Assembly (NCBI GenBank): GCA_965237955.1
Contig: OZ250169.1
Coordinates: forward strand, 1,760,001-1,824,000
DNA from: Candidatus Marinacidobacterales bacterium
GTDB taxonomy: Bacteria > Acidobacteriota > Vicinamibacteria > Marinacidobacterales > SMYC01
Direction: 5' to 3'
DNA length: 64,000 nt
Made by a program: the position numbers and the translations under genes. The first letter of the stretch is position 1; each line of letters begins with the position of its first letter. Positions 17,490 through 30,244 of this stretch are shown piece by piece. The notes beneath the pieces are model-generated. The model was given only the letters and a program-made list of their open reading frames with translations. It ran no database searches and was not told the origin of the DNA.

Positions 17490-19400
17490 TTAATTGTTCA
17501 CTTCAGTATATTCGGCATCCACCACATCTTCATCATCAGTGGGCGAGCCGTTCGGCGCTTCCGCCGTCGTCTCGCTGGCCGCTTGCGTGTTCTGGTAGAG
17601 CTTTTCGGCCATGGCGTGGGACGCCTTGGTGAGGCGCTCTTCCGCCGCCTTCATGGCACTGAGGTCGCCGTCGCCGCTGTCGAGCTTCTCTTTGGCTTCG
17701 ACGAGAGCAGCTTCGACGTCGCTTACGATCGACGCATCCAAGTTGGACTTGTTCTCGTCGAGGCTCCGCTCGGTCGTGAAGATCGCGGTGTCGAGGTGGT
17801 TCTTGGCTTCCACCGCTTGGCGAAGCTTCTGATCCTCGACCCGGTTCGCTTCGGACTCCTTGACCATCCCGTCGATCTCTTCCTTGCTGAGACCGCTCGA
17901 GCTGGTGATGGTGATGCTCTGTTCTTTCCCGGTAGCCCGGTCCTTCGCGCTGACGTTCACGATGCCGTTGGCATCGATGTCGAAGGTGACCTCGATTTGA
18001 GGGACACCGCGCTGGGCGGGCGGGATTCCGACGAGCTCGAACTGCCCGAGGGTCCGGTTGTCTTTGGCCATCTCGCGCTCGCCCTGAAGGACGTGCACGC
18101 CGACGCTCGGCTGATTATCGGCCGCTGTCGAAAAGACCTCGCTCTTTTGAACGGGGATCGTGGTGTTGCGGTCGATCAGCTTCGTGAAGACGCCACCGAG
18201 GGTCTCGATCCCGAGCGACAGAGGTGTTACGTCGAGCAACAAGACGTTCTTGACGTCGCCCTGCAGGACGCCGGCCTGAATCGCCGCGCCGATCGAAACG
18301 ACCTCGTCCGGGTTGACGCCCTTGTGGGGTTCCTTCCCGAAGAGCTCTTGGACCATTTCCTGGACCTTTGGGATACGCGTCGAGCCACCGACGAGAACGA
18401 CTTCGTCGATTTTCGACGTGTCGATGTCGGCGTCCTTTAGCGCTCGCTTGCAAGGCTCGAGCGCCCGGTCGAACAAGTCGGCAACCAGTTGCTCGAATTT
18501 CGCTCGCGAGAGCTTCAGCTGTAGATGCTTCGGACCCGAGGCGTCTGCGGTCACGAACGGCAAGTTGATCTCGGTCTCGACGGACGTCGAGAGCTCGATC
18601 TTCGCGCGCTCTGCAGCTTCTTTCAGCCGCTGCAACGCCATCTTGTCGGCCGCGAGGTCGATGCCCTGGTCTTTCTTGAATTCCTGCACCATCCAATCGA
18701 TCACACGCTGGTCGAGATCGTCGCCACCGAGGTGGGTATCGCCACCCGTGGCCATGACCTCGATGACACCATCGCCGACTTCGAGGATGGAGATATCGAA
18801 CGTACCACCGCCGAAATCGAACACCGCGATGGTCTCTTCTTCTTTCTTGTCGAGCCCGTAGGCCAGTGCTGCGGCCGTCGGCTCGTTGATGATGCGCTGC
18901 ACGTTGAGCCCGGCGATCTTGCCGGCGTCTTTGGTCGCCTGTCGCTGAGCGTCGTTGAAGTACGCCGGGACCGTGATCACGGCGTCGGTCACTTTCTCGC
19001 CGAGATAGTCCTCGGCCGCCTGCTTGAGCTTTTCCAGCACGAGCGCGGAAATCTCAGGAGGCGAATAGCTCTTGGCCCCCGCCTTCACTCGGACATCGCC
19101 GTTTTTGCCGTTTTCGACCTCGAACGGCACCATCGAGATCTCGCCTTTGACCTCGTCGTAACGCCGTCCCATGAATCGCTTGATGGAGTACACGGTGTTC
19201 TCGGGGTTGGTGATCGCCTGGCGGCGAGCCACCTGTCCTATTAGTCGCTGTCCGTCCTTATTGAAGGCGACGACACTCGGAGTCACACGATCGCCCTCCG
19301 AGTTCACGATGACCTTCGGCTCGCCACCCTCGATAACTGAGACCACCGAGTTGGTGGTGCCGAGGTCGATTCCAATTGACTTGCCATTGTTCTGGCCCAT
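17490..19400 (-). CDS. dnaK: Chaperone DnaK (Hsp70)
   Basis: [38 protein letters not shown]. Confidence 0.99.
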
Positions 19401-19528: not shown

Positions 19529-19557
19529 TTGACATATCTAGACTAACATATTAGTCT
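19529..19557 (+). promoter_or_regulatory. sigma70 promoter for clpB with overlapping palindrome
   Basis: TTGACA-N17-TAGTCT; AGACTAA-cata-TTAGTCT at 19540-19557. Confidence 0.7.
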
Positions 19558-19592
19558 TACTCGACCTCGATTAGGGAGAGATCGTAGAACCT

Positions 19593-22567: not shown

Positions 22568-23809
22568 ATGAAACACAAGGGCCGGCGAAAAGCCGAATTG
22601 AAGCTGTCGTCTCAAGAAAGCGAAGCGCTGACGCGACTGGCGCGACGCAGCCGTAGTTCGCCGCACCAAGCCTTCCGAGCGAAGATCGTGCTGGATTGCG
22701 CGGCGGGTCTGACGAATATGGAAGTTGCTAGCCCCCTGGATCTTTGATTACTATACAAAGTTAGGCTTTTCGCCAGCCCATAAGATTCATAAGATTCATG
22801 CACTTAGAATGGTTTCGGCAAGCTCTGCTTTATCTAGTTTGTTCTGATACAGGGGACTAGGAAGATGCACACCATGAGGAGCACGGTGGGCAAGTGGCGA
22901 AGACGCTTTGTAGAACAACGAATGGAAGGGTTGTACGACGAACCTCGGCCGGGAGCGGCTCGCAAAATCGGCGATGACCAGATCGAGGAAGTCCTGACCA
23001 AGACGCTGGAGACGACTCCAAAGGGGAGAACCCATTGGAGTACGCGCTCGATGGCCAAGCATCTTGGGCTGAGTCATTCGACGATTGGACGTATTTGGCG
23101 AACGTTCGGGCTTCAACCGCACCGCTCGGAATCGTTTCGTCTCTCGCAAGACCCACAACTGGTCGAAAAAGTACGCGACGTTGTTGGCCTGTATATGAAC
23201 CCACCGGATAACGCGGTCGTCCTGTGCGTCGACGAGAAATCGCAGATTCAAGCGCTCGAGCGTGCTCAACCTGTCCTGCCCATGAGCTTGGGCCAGCCCG
23301 AGCGACAAACCCACGACTACATTCGGCATGGAACGACTGACCTGTTTGCCGCACTCGACGCCGCAACAGGTGAAGTCTTCGGAAAGTGCTACGCGCGACA
23401 TCGAGCGCTAGAGTTCAAGAAGTTCCTCGCTGAGATCGAAGCAGCCGTTCCCAGCGAGTTGGACATCCACGTCGTGCTCGACAATCTCGCCACGCACAAG
23501 ACACCGGCGATCAAACGCTGGCTTTCCAAGCGACCTCGGTTCCACTTTCACTTCACACCGACACACGCCTCTTGGCTCAACTTCGCTGAGCGCTTCTTTG
23601 GCTTGCTCACCGAACACGCCTTGCGACGAGGCTCGCACACGAGCGTGCCTCAGCTCCGCGCTGCGATACAAGACTATCTCGATGCTCACAACGAGAACCC
23701 AAAGCCGTTCAAGTGGACGAAATCCGCCGACCAAATCCTCGAAACCATCGCTCGGTTCGCCCAGCGAACGCTCGATACACATGGCAAATCGAATTTGGAC
23801 AGTAATTAA
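22568..23809 (+). pseudogene. IS630 transposase interrupted by a MITE
   Basis: N-terminus MKHKGRRKAEL...RAKIVL...EVA rejoins [17 protein letters not shown] once 129 bp are removed; [30 protein letters not shown]. Confidence 0.9.
22728..22860 (-). mobile_element. 133-bp IS630-type MITE, copy 1
   Basis: Near-identical to 27367-27499 and 30816-30948; CTAG at both ends. Confidence 0.95.
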
Positions 23810-23856: not shown

Positions 23857-25266
23857 GTGCGAAAGCCGACCCGACGTGAGTTTCTGCGTGCAGCGCTAGG
23901 GGCGAGTCTAGCGCTGCCGGCGGCGTCCGGCCTCGGCGGAGGACAAACCAACCAACGGACGGCCGCCCCGGACCTATGGGGGCTGGGGTTTCCCGATCCG
24001 GCGGTGGGATGGCGCGGAGACTCCTCGGTCGCTGCGGCTCTCCGGGCCGGGCAGAGCCTTCAGTCGTTCTCCGCACCCTTTCCGCAAGTCGAAGCGAAAC
24101 CTGCCACGTCCTTGAGGGAGCGCTTTGCCGATCTCGACCGGCACTTCATTTTCGACTACTACCCGTGGTACGGGGCCGACCCCTGGAGGCACTGGAACAA
24201 CCGGGACCGCTTTCCGCCCGATGACATTGCTGCTACCAGCGTCCCTCACCTGGGGCCCTATGATTCCAAGTCCACTGCGGTACTGGAACGGCACGCACGC
24301 TGGATTGCCGAGTCCGGTGTAGGTGCGATCGCACTCTCCTGGTGGGGGCGGGGAAGCTACGAGGATGCCGCGGTCCCCCTGGTCATGGATGTCATGAAGG
24401 CTCATGACATCAAAGTTACTTTTGGTCTCGAACCTTATGCCAACGATCGCGGAAGCCGATACGCCCAGGACATCCTTTACTTGCTTCGGGAGTTCGGTGA
24501 GAAACGCGGTTGGGATGCCTTCCTCGTATTGAAGAACGAAGACGGCGCGGAGCGGCCGGTATTCAAAGGATTCCGACTCATTCTCCCGCGGGCGATCGTC
24601 GACTGTCACGGCATCACACATCGGGTACCTGATTTCACGCCGGACGGGGTTTGGCGGCGTCAGACAGACCGCCTTCGGGAGACCCTCAGGCGAGACTTCG
24701 ATCACATCACGCTCCTCGCGGACTCGCTCGATTTCGTGAGGACCCCGGCGTCCGGCTTCGATGGTGTTGGCATCTACGACAATTTCATCGAGCCGGATCG
24801 TTACGCAGGGTTCGCTGCCGGTGCTTCGCGGCAAGACCTCCTCTTCTCTTTCAACACGAATCCCGGCTTCGATGGTATCGAGCCGGGACAGGTCGATCCC
24901 GATAGCTGCTATGAGCCGCTCCCGTTTGCGCCCCCGACTGAAGGCCTCGACTGGGATTTGCTGCATGAGCGGGATCGAGCAGCGCGGTTGTCGGCGGAGA
25001 GGATCAAAGAGTCACTACAAGCTACGATTCGCGTTCAGAGTTTTGCGACTCTCACGAACTCTCAGCGCGGCTTTTTTCTCGTCTACCTCAACTCGTTCAA
25101 CGAATGGCACGAAGGCCACGCCTTCGAGCCCATGAAGGACTGGACGGAGCTTCGCGCCGAAGAAAAGGCTCTTGGTTACCATAACCCCACCTGGGGCGAC
25201 TACAGGCTGGCCACTTTGAGCGCGGAGCTCCGCGACGTCGGAGCGCTCAGCTCGTCGGCACCTTGA
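23857..25266 (+). CDS. Tat-exported glycoside hydrolase, GH99/GH71-like
   Basis: TRREFL Tat signal; YYPWYG, LGPYDS, SWWG, NSFNEWHEG. Confidence 0.75.
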   Translation: MRKPTRREFLRAALGASLALPAASGLGGGQTNQRTAAPDLWGLGFPDPAVGWRGDSSVAAALRAGQSLQSFSAPFPQVEAKPATSLRERFADLDRHFIFDYYPWYGADPWRHWNNRDRFPPDDIAATSVPHLGPYDSKSTAVLERHARWIAESGVGAIALSWWGRGSYEDAAVPLVMDVMKAHDIKVTFGLEPYANDRGSRYAQDILYLLREFGEKRGWDAFLVLKNEDGAERPVFKGFRLILPRAIVDCHGITHRVPDFTPDGVWRRQTDRLRETLRRDFDHITLLADSLDFVRTPASGFDGVGIYDNFIEPDRYAGFAAGASRQDLLFSFNTNPGFDGIEPGQVDPDSCYEPLPFAPPTEGLDWDLLHERDRAARLSAERIKESLQATIRVQSFATLTNSQRGFFLVYLNSFNEWHEGHAFEPMKDWTELRAEEKALGYHNPTWGDYRLATLSAELRDVGALSSSAP

Positions 25267-25538
25267 CCTCGTTTCTCGCCTCGATCTTTTGAATGACCGC
25301 TTGCATCTTCTGGCGGCCCGAGGGTGTTGTCAAGTTGAGGGCTTCAAGGCCGATTCGACCCCAAGATATGGTCGACGGCGCATCCTCGTGCCCCCACGAT
25401 ATTGGGGCGCGATTCGGCAACTTGACAGCAATGGCACCGCCCGTGTGGGCGGAGGTCATCGGGGAATGAACGAAATCCGTTCGTTCACTCGAAAGTACCT
25501 CGGCGGATCTACGAGTTATTCGAAGAGAACCTGAAGCC

Positions 25539-25577
25539 AAAACGAAAAATGGGGGGCAGGCTGACTGCCTGCCCCCC
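25539..25577 (-). terminator. Intrinsic terminator (minus strand)
   Basis: Perfect 11-bp stem GGGGGGCAGGC/GCCTGCCCCCC followed by AUUUUUCGUUUU. Confidence 0.85.
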
Positions 25578-25663
25578 AGATTTCTATCCCCGGGAGGCGG
25601 TGCGGGGGGCACCCCCCGGGGCTGGCGTCGAGATTGAGGAGCGACGCCAAATGCGTTCTCGGA
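25540..25663 (-). ncRNA. Candidate sigma54-dependent small RNA with three stem-loops
   Basis: Lies between a consensus -24/-12 box and an intrinsic terminator; hairpins at 25623-25649, 25588-25621, 25551-25577. Confidence 0.6.
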
Positions 25664-25673
25664 CACCCTTTCA

Positions 25674-25689
25674 AGCAATTGGCGTGCCA
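25674..25689 (-). promoter_or_regulatory. sigma54 (-24/-12) promoter
   Basis: Minus strand TGGCACGccaaTTGCT matches TGGCACG-N4-TTGCW exactly; IHF-like TAGCAATGGGTTA at 25719-25731. Confidence 0.8.
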
Positions 25690-26017
25690 GTAACGGGTCT
25701 TCGGTGTAACTGTATATATAGCAATGGGTTATCGATGTATTGCCAAAGTCCGCCACGAGCTTCGGATTCAAATTTGAAACTGGACGTAAACTTATTACAT
25801 TTAAAAATTTAACACTTGGCGAGCTTGTGCGCGGGCTAGATCTACTTGAAGGCCCTTTATTGGGCAGGCTTGGGCGTGGCCGGGCAGTCAACGTTTAGTC
25901 GGCAAGGCCGATCGGGCACGGGCACGGGCGGTCGGGCACGACTGGAGGCTGAGCTGTCTGGTAGAATTGAGGTACACCACAACTACGTCACACGTCCTGA
26001 ACGCTGGGCGCTCCCCG

Positions 26018-27594
26018 ATGAACCAGCAGGTCGCAGAAGCTTTCAAGAAGCTCTACTTCGGCAAGCGCACCGGTGTGCTTACGTGTGAGGCGGACGCGGC
26101 GCGCCGCGCGGTCTACTTTCAGTCCGGGTTCGTCGTGAGCGCTTCCTCGAGCCTGGAGCAGGATCGGCTTGGCGAAGTCATGATCCGCCACGGTCGCATC
26201 ACTCAACAGCAGTTCGAAGATGCATCGCACTTCATCAAGAGCGGTTGGAAGCTGGGCGAGATCCTGGCCGAGCTGAGCGTTATCGATGAGGAAGAGATCG
26301 AGTCTTTCGTGCGGCTCCAGCTTCTCGACATCGCGTGCACGCAACTCATTCGCCCGCCCAAGCGGCTGTCGTTTGCGGCTCTTAGCGGAGTCGACGCCTA
26401 CCTCGAGGCGCCGCTTTCGGTCGCCGACATTCTCATGGAGGCGGCGCGCCGCACTCCCAAGCTCGGGTCGAAGCTCAGAGCGCTCAAGGGGGGAAAACGC
26501 AAGCTCGGGTTCCCGAGCGACCCCCTCAAACGTTTCCAGGACGTCAACCTGCAACCCGAAGAAGCGTTCGTACTGTCACGAGTGGACGGAACGCAGACCC
26601 CGAGGGACATTTTCGCGGTGAGCCCGCTGTCCGAGGAGCAGACCGCTCGTACTTTGCTGGGCCTGCTCGAAGCTCAGCTCATCGAGCCCGAAGGCACCGA
26701 TGTCGTCGAGCCCAAAGTGACCGAAGTCGAGGCAGCCGAACCAGAAGATGACGTCGACACCAGCCAAACGCTGAGGCGGGGCGAGCAGCGTGACCGCGAG
26801 CGTGCGTCCGTCGAGCGGCTCTACCAGGAAGTCCAATTCCAAGATCATTGGCAGGTCCTTTCGATCGATCGGGGAGCGTCTTCGGAGATGATCAAGGAAG
26901 CTTTTTTTAGCGGTGCGAAGGCCTACCATCCCGACATGTTTCGCCATATTACGGAGCCCGAGTTCCAAGAGAAGCTGTCGTTCATCTTTCAACGGATCAA
27001 CGAGGCGTACGAAACGCTTTCTTCGAACGATCCATGGAGCGTTACGAGTCGCTTCGAGCGAAAGAAGAGCTCTACGCCCAATCCCAGCAGGGTCCCCCGT
27101 CGCCCGCATCGAGGGCAGCGTCGCGAGGGAAACCAAGCGATGTCGCCAGCCTGTTCCACCGCGCACATCTGGCGTTCGATAGCGAGGACTTCTGGAGGTG
27201 CATCGAGCTCTCGCGCGAAGCCGTCGACCTCGCACCCGATTGCGCCGCCTACTACAACCTACTCGGCCTGGCTCTAGCCAAGAACCCGAAGTGGCGTCAG
27301 GACGCCGAGAAAAATCTGAAGATCGCGGCGAACCTGGATCCCTTCAAAGCGTCCTACGTCTTAGAGCTAGTCCCCTGTATCAGAACAAACTAGATAAAGC
27401 ATAGCTTGCCGAAACCATTCTAAGTGCATGAATCTTATGAATCTTATGGGCTGGCGAAAAGCCTAACTTTGTATAGTAATCAAAGATCCAGGGGACTAGC
27501 GAAACTCTACGAGAGAGCTGGCCTGCACCTGAGAGCCCAAAAAACGCTCGAGAAGGCCCAAGCGATCGATCCGACGGTAGAAGGGCCGGAGTAG
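26018..27594 (+). pseudogene. DUF4388-like / J-domain / TPR protein, frameshifted (~27030) and interrupted by a MITE
   Basis: RLGEVMIRHG, YHPD J-domain motif, TPR helices; removing the MITE restores LELAKLYERAGL...GPE*. Confidence 0.8.
27367..27499 (+). mobile_element. 133-bp IS630-type MITE, copy 2
   Basis: CTAGTCCCCTG...CAGGGGACTAG. Confidence 0.95.
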
Positions 27595-27607: not shown

Positions 27608-29020
27608 CTAGCCTTCTTTCTCATACTGCTTTAGCTTCCGCCAAAGCGTCGCCGTCGTAATACCGAGTCGTCGCGCGGTGTTCTTGCGGCTGCCACTACA
27701 CTCCGCGAGCACTTCGAGGATGTACTCCTTTTCGAGCTCGGACAGCGTGAGCGAGCTCTGTCGGGCGTGGTCGATGACCCGATCTTCGTTGCGATCGGAC
27801 TCGCCAAAAGGTAGGTCGTCCATCCCGAGGATGCCGTCTCGATCGAGAGCCGCGGCCCGTTCGATAATGTTCTCGAGCTCGCGCACGTTGCCCCGCCACG
27901 TCTGCTTCAACAGAAGGTCCATGGCTTGCGGTGAGATCGCGGGCGGCTGCGCTTTGCCCATCCGCTCGGCGATGCGCCGCACGAAGTGTTGCGCGAGAGG
28001 CGGAATATCGTCGCGTCGTGCGCGTAGCGGAGGGAGCTCGATGGGAATGACGTTGAGGCGATAGAAGAGATCCTCGCGGAAGTCGCGGTCCGCGACGCTT
28101 TTCTCTAGGTCGCGATTCGTCGCGGCGATGATGCGAACGTCGAGGTTGCGACTCGCGGTCGTTCCCACGCGGCGGACTTCGCCGTTTTGCAGGAAGCGCA
28201 ACATCTTGACTTGCGCCATCTGAGTCAGCTCGCCCACCTCGTCGAGAAACGCGGTGCCGCCGTGGGCTTCGTCGAAGAGCCCGCGTTTGTCGGCGTAGGC
28301 TCCGGTGAACGCGCCTTTCGTGTGGCCGAAAAGTTCACTTTCCTGCAGGTTCTCCGGAATCGCACCGCAGTTCACGATAACGAGGGGCTTGTCTTTCCTC
28401 GGTGAGAGCTGGTGGAGCGCTCGCGCGACGAGCTCCTTTCCGGTGCCGCTTTCTCCGGTGATGAGCACGGTGGATTCGAGTCGAGCCACCTGGTCGACCA
28501 TCTTCAATACGTCGTTCATCGCCTGTGACGTGCACACGATTTCCTCGAATGGGTGTTGACCGCGAACGGCTTGCTCGAGCAGTCGAACGCGTTGCGTCAA
28601 TCCCTTGCGTTCGAGCGCGCGCCCCGCGACGAGGGTAAGCTCCTCTGGCTGGAACGGCTTGGTGAGGTAGTCGTAGGCGCCGGACTTGATAGCTTCGACG
28701 GCTCCTTCGATCGTCCCGTAGGCCGTCATCACCACGACTTCGGTGTCGGGAAAGAGCTCCTTGCTGCGGGTGAGCACGTCCATGCCGCTCATACCGGTGA
28801 GGCGCATATCGGTGATGACGAGGTCGAAGGGCTTCTTGTACAGGTACTCGAGCGCCTGCTCGCCGCTTTCCGCAGACTCCACCGTGTAGCCTTCACGGCG
28901 GAACGTGATGACCATCGACTCGCGGATGGGCGCCTGGTCGTCGACGACGAGGACAGACACACTTTGGACCGATTCCTCGGACGTGTCCTCAGCGACGGAT
29001 CTCGATCGGTTGGTGCTCAT
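27608..29020 (-). CDS. NtrC-family sigma54-dependent response regulator
   Basis: REC domain, GESGTGKE, GAFTGA, Fis-type HTH. Confidence 0.96.
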   Translation of the reverse strand: MSTNRSRSVAEDTSEESVQSVSVLVVDDQAPIRESMVITFRREGYTVESAESGEQALEYLYKKPFDLVITDMRLTGMSGMDVLTRSKELFPDTEVVVMTAYGTIEGAVEAIKSGAYDYLTKPFQPEELTLVAGRALERKGLTQRVRLLEQAVRGQHPFEEIVCTSQAMNDVLKMVDQVARLESTVLITGESGTGKELVARALHQLSPRKDKPLVIVNCGAIPENLQESELFGHTKGAFTGAYADKRGLFDEAHGGTAFLDEVGELTQMAQVKMLRFLQNGEVRRVGTTASRNLDVRIIAATNRDLEKSVADRDFREDLFYRLNVIPIELPPLRARRDDIPPLAQHFVRRIAERMGKAQPPAISPQAMDLLLKQTWRGNVRELENIIERAAALDRDGILGMDDLPFGESDRNEDRVIDHARQSSLTLSELEKEYILEVLAECSGSRKNTARRLGITTATLWRKLKQYEKEG

Positions 29021-30244
29021 CGGAACTCGATTCTGAACTCATGGGAAATCTCAATCGGAACGCGCTTCCTCGTCCCTCTTCGCTTTCTACTTCGACCTCG
29101 CCGGCATGTGCTTCGACGACGCGGTGCACGATCGCGAGGCCCAGCCCGGTGCCATCGGCCTTCGTCGTGTGGAAAGGCTGAAAAATTTTGTCTCGCTCGC
29201 TCGCGAGAATACCTTTGCCGGTATCAGCGACGACGATTTCGAGAAAATCGCCACCCTTCGTCGAGCGACTCACTTCCACCCGAATCTCGCCGCCCTTGGG
29301 CATGGCTTCGACCGCGTTCACGAGTAGGTTCCAAAGCGCTTCGCGGGTCTGCGCCGAGTCGAGCGGGACTTTCGGCAAACCGGGCTCGTACTCTTTTTCG
29401 ATTCGGATCTCGCTTTTGCCCGTTTGTTCTTGGGACAGCAGAAGGAGCAGGTCGTCGAGGACGTCGGTCACGTGCTCCGGCATCTTGTGAATGGGCCGCG
29501 GTCGTGCGAACCGGAGAAAATCGGCGACGATATCTTCGAGGCGTTGCGATTCATCGTTGACGACTTCGAGGCGGCGGCGATCGTCGCCGTGTAGATCTAA
29601 ATCGCGCCGGAGAACGCCCACCGAGTTCGAGATTGCGCCTAGTGGGTTTCGAATCTCGTGCGCGATCTGCGCTGCCAACTCACCGATCGCAGCGAGCCGC
29701 TCCGAACGGATCAGTTTCTCCTGCGTCTCCTTCAGCTCCTCGTACGCGCGCCGAGTCTCCTGGAAGAGCTCGCGATAGCGTTTTTCGGATTCCCGCAGTC
29801 GCGCCGTCCGCTCACGCACTTTCCTTTCGAGTGAGCGCTGGTAGTCTTCGTTTTCGGCCTCGAGTCGACCTTTTTCACGTAGAAGCGCGTTCCGCTCGCC
29901 CGCTCGACGACGGCAAGGAGCACCGGACGAGTGACGGGCTTGGTGATGTAGTCGTAAGCGCCTTCTTTGAGAGCCTCGACCGCGGTGGATAAGTCTGGAT
30001 GGCCGGTGACCATGACCACGCTCATGGTCTCGTCGTGTTCGGCTGCAAAACGAAGCAGCGATAATCCGCTCTCTTGCGGGAGCATGAGGTCGGTAAGCGC
30101 GACGTCGAATCGCTTCTCCGCGAGATGTGTCTTGGCCTCGTTGAAGCTCGACGCGGCAACGACCTCATGGCCCTCCAGTTCGAGGACGTCCTGAAAGGTT
30201 GCTCGGACGGTCTCTTCGTCGTCGACGATCAGTATCGATGGCAC
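28989..30244 (-). pseudogene. REC-HisKA-HATPase hybrid sensor kinase with an apparent frameshift near 29895
   Basis: REC in ORF 29732-30244; AHEIRNPL, NAVEAM, DTGKGI, GTGLGL in ORF 28989-29819; the frames join through a 1-nt indel. Confidence 0.8.

Follow-up and report, generated by a model that had tools for sequence, protein, structure and literature searches.

The minus strand of the window, the 64,000-nt stretch of DNA analysed as a whole, carries an element with a 62-nt core of two hairpins (SL1-SL2) that probably represents a new family of small RNAs (sRNAs), dependent on sigma54 and served by a predicted dedicated two-component system. The element is single-copy in the 8.13-Mb genome, and the RNA is confined to one family of Acidobacteriota, plus one diverged copy in a sister family. 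That a real RNA gene lies at this locus is held with high confidence, and its activation by the neighbouring kinase/NtrC pair is likely; base pairing, not protein titration, is favoured as the mode of the RNA with somewhat less assurance. The whole explanation, in which a stand-alone sRNA gene, a sigma54/kinase/NtrC switch and repression in trans through C-rich loops have to hold together, is put at slightly better than even.

In the proposed mechanism, the kinase would phosphorylate the NtrC-type activator, two dimers of which would sit on two palindromes and, with the DNA bent by IHF at -68, would switch on the sigma54 polymerase at the RNA promoter, with a predicted transcription start near 25663. 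The 3' U-tract of the transcript would be bound by Hfq, whose gene is present in the genome, while loop 1 would cover Shine-Dalgarno (SD) sequences and so repress mRNAs in trans, and loop 2 may pair with G-rich stretches.

Conservation and range of the RNA

The candidate sRNA of the original prediction is supported as a non-coding gene, conserved across relatives together with its sigma54 promoter and its enhancer sites. The family concerned is one family of the order Ca. Marinacidobacterales (class Vicinamibacteria, Acidobacteriota), and a BLAST search of 60 relatives returned strong matches (E <=3e-22) in 17 of its 18 other genomes and in none of the 42 genomes from elsewhere; conservation of the promoter and the stems, looked for in relatives, was likewise found in 17 of the 18. 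The element was not found in G003, a family genome that is 84% complete and in which rpoN and the activator orthologue were not found either. A covariance model built from the family sequences scores them, by construction, at 89.6-110.5 bits, with one locus each (G007 holds two overlapping contig ends of one locus), and the two-loop pattern occurs with the core in 19 metagenome contigs, several of which duplicate genomes. The total is 37 loci, 33 of them with distinct upstream regions. The core is identical in 20 of the 37, and across nine genera its identity amounts to 97.9%, as against 52% for the upstream spacer, 75.5% for the NtrC coding DNA and 51% for NtrC third codon positions.

Outside the family, the covariance model found nothing above 24 bits in 55 genomes of the order, 151 of the class and 151 of the phylum. 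Weak hits were inspected (four outside the family, a second hit in G008, and one each in G113 and G027), and promoter elements accompany only the one in G031. A pattern for the SL2 stem, run over 401 genomes of the phylum, gave seven other matches, none with the box or the palindrome, and viral contigs held no match to the element. The genome-wide pattern scan was too loose, the matches listed being mostly chance.

No sequencing run recorded as RNA was found to hold the element. In one run, whose RNA status is a guess, a single 151-nt contig from a relative spans 25514-25664 and ends at the predicted start, the upstream region and the flanking genes being uncovered there and covered in three other runs; this contig is not counted as evidence because it is a contig, comes from one study and extends about 30 nt past the terminator.

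Hairpins, loops and mode of action

The 126 nt of the element form three hairpins with a folding energy of -70.9 kcal/mol (z -5.7), a stability that none of 200 shuffles reaches. Folding of the opposite strand is almost as favourable (z -5.1), so that the fold is insufficient to assign the strand, which is set by the promoter and the U-tracts. On the minus strand, a conserved single-stranded 5' tail (25651-25660; present in two alignments and predicted unpaired) precedes SL1 (25623-25649), which combines an 8-bp stem and a U-G pair with an 11-nt CU-rich loop of anti-SD type (25641-25631). SL2 (25588-25621, minus strand) consists of a 12-bp stem with a C6 run in its loop; its stem is kept in the diverged G031 copy, and it is likely the terminator hairpin in genomes that lack SL3. 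The latter (25545-25578, minus strand) is the variable part, a 12-bp intrinsic terminator followed by a U-tract. Among the 18 genomes, the 3' end is a strong third hairpin in eight, a U-rich run directly after SL2 in nine and neither in one. The predicted RNA therefore measures about 120 nt here and about 80 nt in relatives without the third hairpin, the latter being the minimal form, since SL3 is absent from many genomes and the U-run then follows SL2.

The description of some 120 nt without a credible ORF stands, as the element has a promoter of its own, an intrinsic terminator and no conserved ORF, and SL2 with its C-run loop was drawn correctly. The other two hairpins of the original prediction need amendment. 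SL3 is indeed a terminator with a U-tract, with 12 pairs in place of the perfect 11 that had been claimed, and the three-hairpin fold seen here is not universal, SL3 being found in 8 of 18 genomes. SL1 has the 8-bp stem and the CU-rich loop, whereas the CUCCUC spelling of that loop is private to the source genome: CUCCUCAAUCU is the spelling at one of the 37 loci, the family forms being CUCCCCAAUCU for loop 1 and CCCCCCGCAC for loop 2. The weight placed on the anti-SD loop of SL1 was excessive, given that private spelling and a diverged G031 copy without loop 1. The suggested covariation check is uninformative for the stems of the core, with compensatory changes in none of the 21 pairs of SL1 and SL2 (pairing survives four one-sided changes and is broken once), so that the argument for these stems is one of folding energy and invariance. 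In the terminator, two pairs have changed on both sides among 14 selected sequences.

Base-pairing sRNAs usually fix their seeds and leave the stems free to vary, unlike the pattern seen here, in which the stems are as fixed as the loops. This invariance keeps alive a second reading, unlikely but deserving of some weight, in which the RNA and its promoter are real and the RNA acts as a protein decoy or scaffold, as in the GlmY-RapZ case, or as an RNA sponge, and not by pairing with mRNAs. The identical core of so many loci, with stems and loops equally invariant, speaks for it, as do the scans described below, in which no mRNA target was found, and the presence of a RapZ-like gene in the genome; moreover, GlmY is likewise driven by sigma54, an activator of the adjacent type and IHF, according to the accessible part of the source (PMC3045617). 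Against it, both loops are C-rich and accessible in the predicted fold, and loop 1 prefers SD positions. RapZ-like genes are also widespread (7 of 14 control genomes), CsrA was not found in the genome, and no GlmY, 6S or CsrB model scores at E up to 10.

Base pairing, the preferred mode, was approached through several target scans. In duplex scans of some 7,570 predicted start regions, loop 1 gives no better top duplexes than shuffled loops do, and loop 2 does slightly better than all 8 of its shuffles, with top hits that are mostly copies of one repeated element. Loop 1 duplexes have their centre in the SD bin for 48% of hits with the genome's own loop and for 33% with the family loop, vs 13-27% for the shuffles, three per loop, a preference that is partly circular because gene starts had been chosen with an SD bonus; those of loop 2 have little preference for SD positions. 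Exact complements of loop 1 before ATG or GTG were sought in 19 genomes, and among the 150 of 191 matches listed, with 70 loci examined, no orthologous start region recurs but that of clpB. As a target clpB was rejected, the loop 1 match being limited to G000 and G017 of 13 family genomes, while the others share a plain SD. The starts of six neighbouring genes hold no conserved pairing site. The complement of loop 2 recurs in the codons of the Gly-rich loop of protein kinase genes (in one scan with a pattern one G longer than the usual loop), and protein kinase mRNAs were rejected as well: codon choice in G000 shows no complementarity above background, and perfect matches number 2 of 84 in five RNA-bearing genomes vs 3 of 148 in five RNA-lacking ones.

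As a separate observation, in 6 of 13 family genomes the leader of clpB (~19540-19592, and its counterparts in relatives) has a CCTC motif just ahead of a strong SD, which may form a cis hairpin or act as an RNA thermometer. A DnaK-like gene (17490-19400) lies divergent from clpB.

Promoter, activator and gene neighbourhood

The promoter region came out as originally described and richer by one site. The exact -24/-12 sigma54 box (25674-25689, minus strand) is in place; it stands 24-29 nt ahead of SL1 in all 18 genomes, is shared by all 33 distinct loci and is one of 11 matches to TGGCAC[GA]N4TTGC[AT] in the 8.13 Mb of the genome. The palindrome at 25767-25778 (about -115) lies at enhancer distance, and a distal one of the TTCA-N4-TGAA type at 25801-25812 (about -149) had been overlooked. 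Both enhancer-like palindromes, to which no strand is assigned, have at most two mismatches in 33 of 33 distinct loci, fall near -115 and -148 in most of these and are 32-35 bp apart in 32 of them, that is, three helical turns. The IHF-like site (25719-25731, plus strand, about -68) was also confirmed, with one mismatch to the consensus WATCARNNNNTTR; the best such site falls at -74 to -60 on the same strand in 25 of 33 loci and has at most one mismatch in 22 of 33, each being weak singly. Four HU/IHF-like proteins were found in the genome by motif. A matrix built from the sites ranks the locus promoter first among 111 sigma54-like boxes of the genome (41.7 vs 16.1), a result that is partly circular.

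Upstream of the promoter, Pfam domains delineate three genes: the likely activator, an NtrC-type response regulator (REC-AAA-HTH; 27608-29020, minus strand), a REC-HisKA-HATPase kinase (28989-30244, minus strand) and a divergent DUF4388-DnaJ gene (26018-27393, plus strand) with its C-terminal part in a second frame. No membrane segment is evident in the kinase, and its input would therefore likely come from another phosphorelay. The DUF4388-DnaJ gene adjoins the promoter in all 18 genomes. In 16 of them the kinase comes first, followed by NtrC, this opposite-strand gene and the RNA; in G010 the contig ends first, and G005 lacks the pair. Among the 19 metagenome contigs, NtrC lies within 2.5 kb of the RNA in 16, and in one of them, L228, from which the DnaJ gene is absent, NtrC ends 370 nt ahead of SL1 with no DnaJ gene between. 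The phospho-acceptor Asp and the G(A/S)FTGA motif are intact in 15 of 15 full-length NtrC copies of the family.

In the sister family f2, five genomes keep the gene order but lack a kinase there; GAFTGA is gone from the NtrC of three, and in the other two the Asp has become Glu. In four of these genomes, in which the interval upstream of the DnaJ gene was examined, neither box nor RNA was found, and rpoN is present in three of three f2 genomes tested. The exception is a sixth genome, G031 (73% complete, 4% contamination), where the NtrC copy at the old locus is decayed and a kinase-NtrC pair at another site is intact (NtrC 73%). Its diverged RNA, on a separate contig, comes with a degenerate box, an IHF-like site and the two palindromes, which are 44 bp from each other; the stem of SL2 is intact with a different C-run loop, while SL1 is shortened and the anti-SD loop is gone.

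The link to the kinase/NtrC pair that had been suggested is thus strengthened by the synteny in 16 of 18 genomes, by the adjacency in L228 and by joint loss or decay in the sister family. In line with it, the RNA of G005, the genome that lacks the pair (best hit 49%), has two private changes, one of which is the only broken stem pair in the alignment. Read from the genes, the co-occurrence supports the tie between RNA and activator without proving it, because it amounts to two or three events among related, incomplete genomes. A rather improbable alternative holds that the RNA, whether it pairs or acts as a decoy, is driven by another enhancer-binding protein and that the pair is linked to it by gene order only. 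About 20 enhancer-binding proteins are encoded in the genome, the neighbourhood as a whole (Rrf2, HAD, DnaJ, clpB) is conserved in any case, and G005 keeps the promoter and the RNA without the pair. What counts against this alternative is that the activator decays exactly where the promoter and the RNA are absent, and that G031 retains an intact pair together with the diverged RNA, and has, some 6 kb from that pair, another promoter with a similar palindrome.

Several observations concern the regulators themselves. The further G031 promoter (L375 ~3020, minus strand) is sigma54-like, has a palindrome of the same type and an IHF-like site, and precedes a predicted membrane sensor gene. In G017, G015 and G018 (L387, L395 and L396), a 69-aa ORF without a Pfam match, a possible second member of the regulon, stands behind a second sigma54 promoter, which has a similar palindrome equally far away; in G018 this unit is interrupted by an insertion sequence. 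The NtrC orthologues of f2 (L253-L257, L376) keep their DNA-recognition helix unchanged, but the sigma54-contact loop or the phospho-acceptor has decayed and there is no kinase; these activators may have turned into repressors. The kinase (29732-29819) and the DnaJ-type gene (27034-27277) are each split by a frameshift here, probably through assembly errors; in three relatives that were checked, the kinase reads as a single ORF.

On the other side of the RNA, the gene arrangement bears on whether the element is a gene at all. It is very unlikely that the hairpins are merely the terminator of the convergent clpB, or an element acting at the DNA level, with no RNA of their own: clpB does end 82-161 nt from SL1 in 7 of 18 genomes, a good fold is found for the opposite strand, and the core does not covary, but the loop sequence is 98% identical across genera, unlike that of terminators, the element persists where clpB lies kilobases away or elsewhere, and a full sigma54 promoter aims at fixed spacing into an element that occurs once. 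The least probable idea, largely refuted, casts the element as a 5' leader (attenuator or riboswitch), or takes the complement of loop 1, as SD, spacer and ATG, for the ribosome-binding site of a small ORF on the plus strand: the ATG stands behind the SD-like complement in 20 of 37 loci and is missing in the other 17, the resulting ORFs of 6 to 133 codons share no sequence past the first residues, the genes downstream of the RNA vary and are often convergent, and a leader role is excluded in the 7 of 18 genomes where the convergent clpB leaves no downstream gene.

The interval between the RNA and clpB often has insertions in relatives. In the source genome only, it contains a DDE_3 transposase gene (22865-23809) and a glycoside hydrolase 99-like gene (23857-25266), and a dispersed repeat (25320-25505) lies directly downstream of the RNA. 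This repeat has about 45 partial copies in the genome, most of them matching an 80-bp core, has no Pfam match in three frames and is deeply covered in contigs of other organisms; it is possibly a small mobile or palindromic element. In genus g2 (L193, L203, L205), a same-strand gene with its own sigma70-like promoter lies downstream of the RNA and is probably dnaK, judging by its first codons in G014 and G016. Elsewhere in the source genome (G000:C1 ~156800-160600), several near-identical short repeats with unique spacers form a CRISPR-like array.

Relation to known sRNAs and biological meaning

The preferred reading, a stand-alone sRNA under the kinase/NtrC pair, describes an RNA that is probably built like Pxr or GlmY and belongs to neither. 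The expectation of novelty held in Rfam, where no family, Pxr, ar14 and CcsR1 included, reached its gathering score at the locus or at three homologous loci. The best scores at the locus are 23.4 of 71 bits for mir-423 (terminator alone), 22.7 of 58.8 for ar14 and 19.6 of 65.3 for CcsR1. The Pxr model (RF01812, threshold 80 bits) gives no match at the locus up to E 10, so the RNA is not filed as Pxr; its best match in the genome, 16.9 bits, lies elsewhere, and no positive-control genome matched. Qrr, with LuxO, and CrcZ, with CbrB, are sigma54-dependent sRNAs behind an adjacent NtrC-type activator. The present RNA resembles them in being a sigma54 sRNA near such an activator and differs in its loops and in giving no score with their Rfam models.

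In Myxococcus xanthus, the accessible parts of the Pxr literature describe genes for a kinase (PxrK) and an NtrC-type regulator (PxrR) upstream on the same strand, a sigma54 promoter with an enhancer, and an RNA of two conserved hairpins and a variable third, with a C-run loop in the first (PMC5684412, PMC10217877, PMC5568312, PMC11928866, PMC3892784). Pxr is further marked by processing into a long and a short form and by its control of development. As far as those parts go, the plan recurs here in a sigma54 promoter with enhancer sites at the sequence level and in the kinase/NtrC pair upstream; in the hairpins, two of them conserved with a variable third (8 of 18 genomes) and a C-run loop, the match is less clear-cut. 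By eye, SL2 also resembles SL1 of the Rfam consensus of Pxr (G-R-AGGUG, a C6 run, then CACC). The differences are that the C-run hairpin comes second here and first in Pxr, that a DnaJ-type gene usually separates activator and RNA, and that the phylum is another; no myxobacterial name appears among the 120 NtrC matches listed, few of which carry names. It is doubtful that the kinase, the activator and the RNA are distant homologues of the PxrK/PxrR/Pxr checkpoint, with SL2 equivalent to Pxr SL1, gating a programme from growth to survival.

The promoter plan also matches that of GlmY/GlmZ of Enterobacteriaceae, which, in the portion of the report at hand, have a sigma54 promoter, several palindromic activator sites, an IHF site and a dedicated two-component system, GlrK/GlrR (PMC3045617); palindromic sites, an IHF-like site and a predicted two-component system are all present here. 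On the basis of that portion, the two differ in the palindromes (TTCA-N4-TGAA here vs TGTC-N10-GACA there), in the missing Rfam match and in that no link to glmS was seen. The cuckoo RNAs of Alphaproteobacteria (ar14/NfeR1, CcsR) share with the present RNA the adjacent hairpins with C-rich loops of anti-SD type, and the weak Rfam scores are those of their models, ar14 (RF02344) and CcsR1 (RF02791). In the available excerpt, every loop of a cuckoo RNA has CCUCCUCCC and the stems vary (PMC4615179), whereas here, by comparison with that excerpt, the two loops differ, neither has CCUCCUCCC, and it is the stems that are invariant. For NfeR1, partial text of the source describes repression by NtrC and silencing of ntrB (PMC10746234); for feedback of the kind outlined there, no conserved pairing to the starts of the neighbouring genes was found.

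A literature search on Ca. Marinacidobacterales and on sRNAs of Acidobacteriota returned no description of this RNA and no characterised sRNA in the phylum; large catalogues of RNA motifs in subscription journals or preprint supplements could include this RNA. The locus offers a full predicted regulatory unit in Acidobacteriota, comprising kinase, activator, DNA sites, promoter and RNA, and the invariant core provides a specific probe for the activity of the family in environmental RNA. Because the core is more conserved than the adjacent protein genes, the RNA likely controls something central. If the doubtful homology with Pxr were true, large-genome Acidobacteriota would use the same RNA switch that gates the development of fruiting bodies in myxobacteria.
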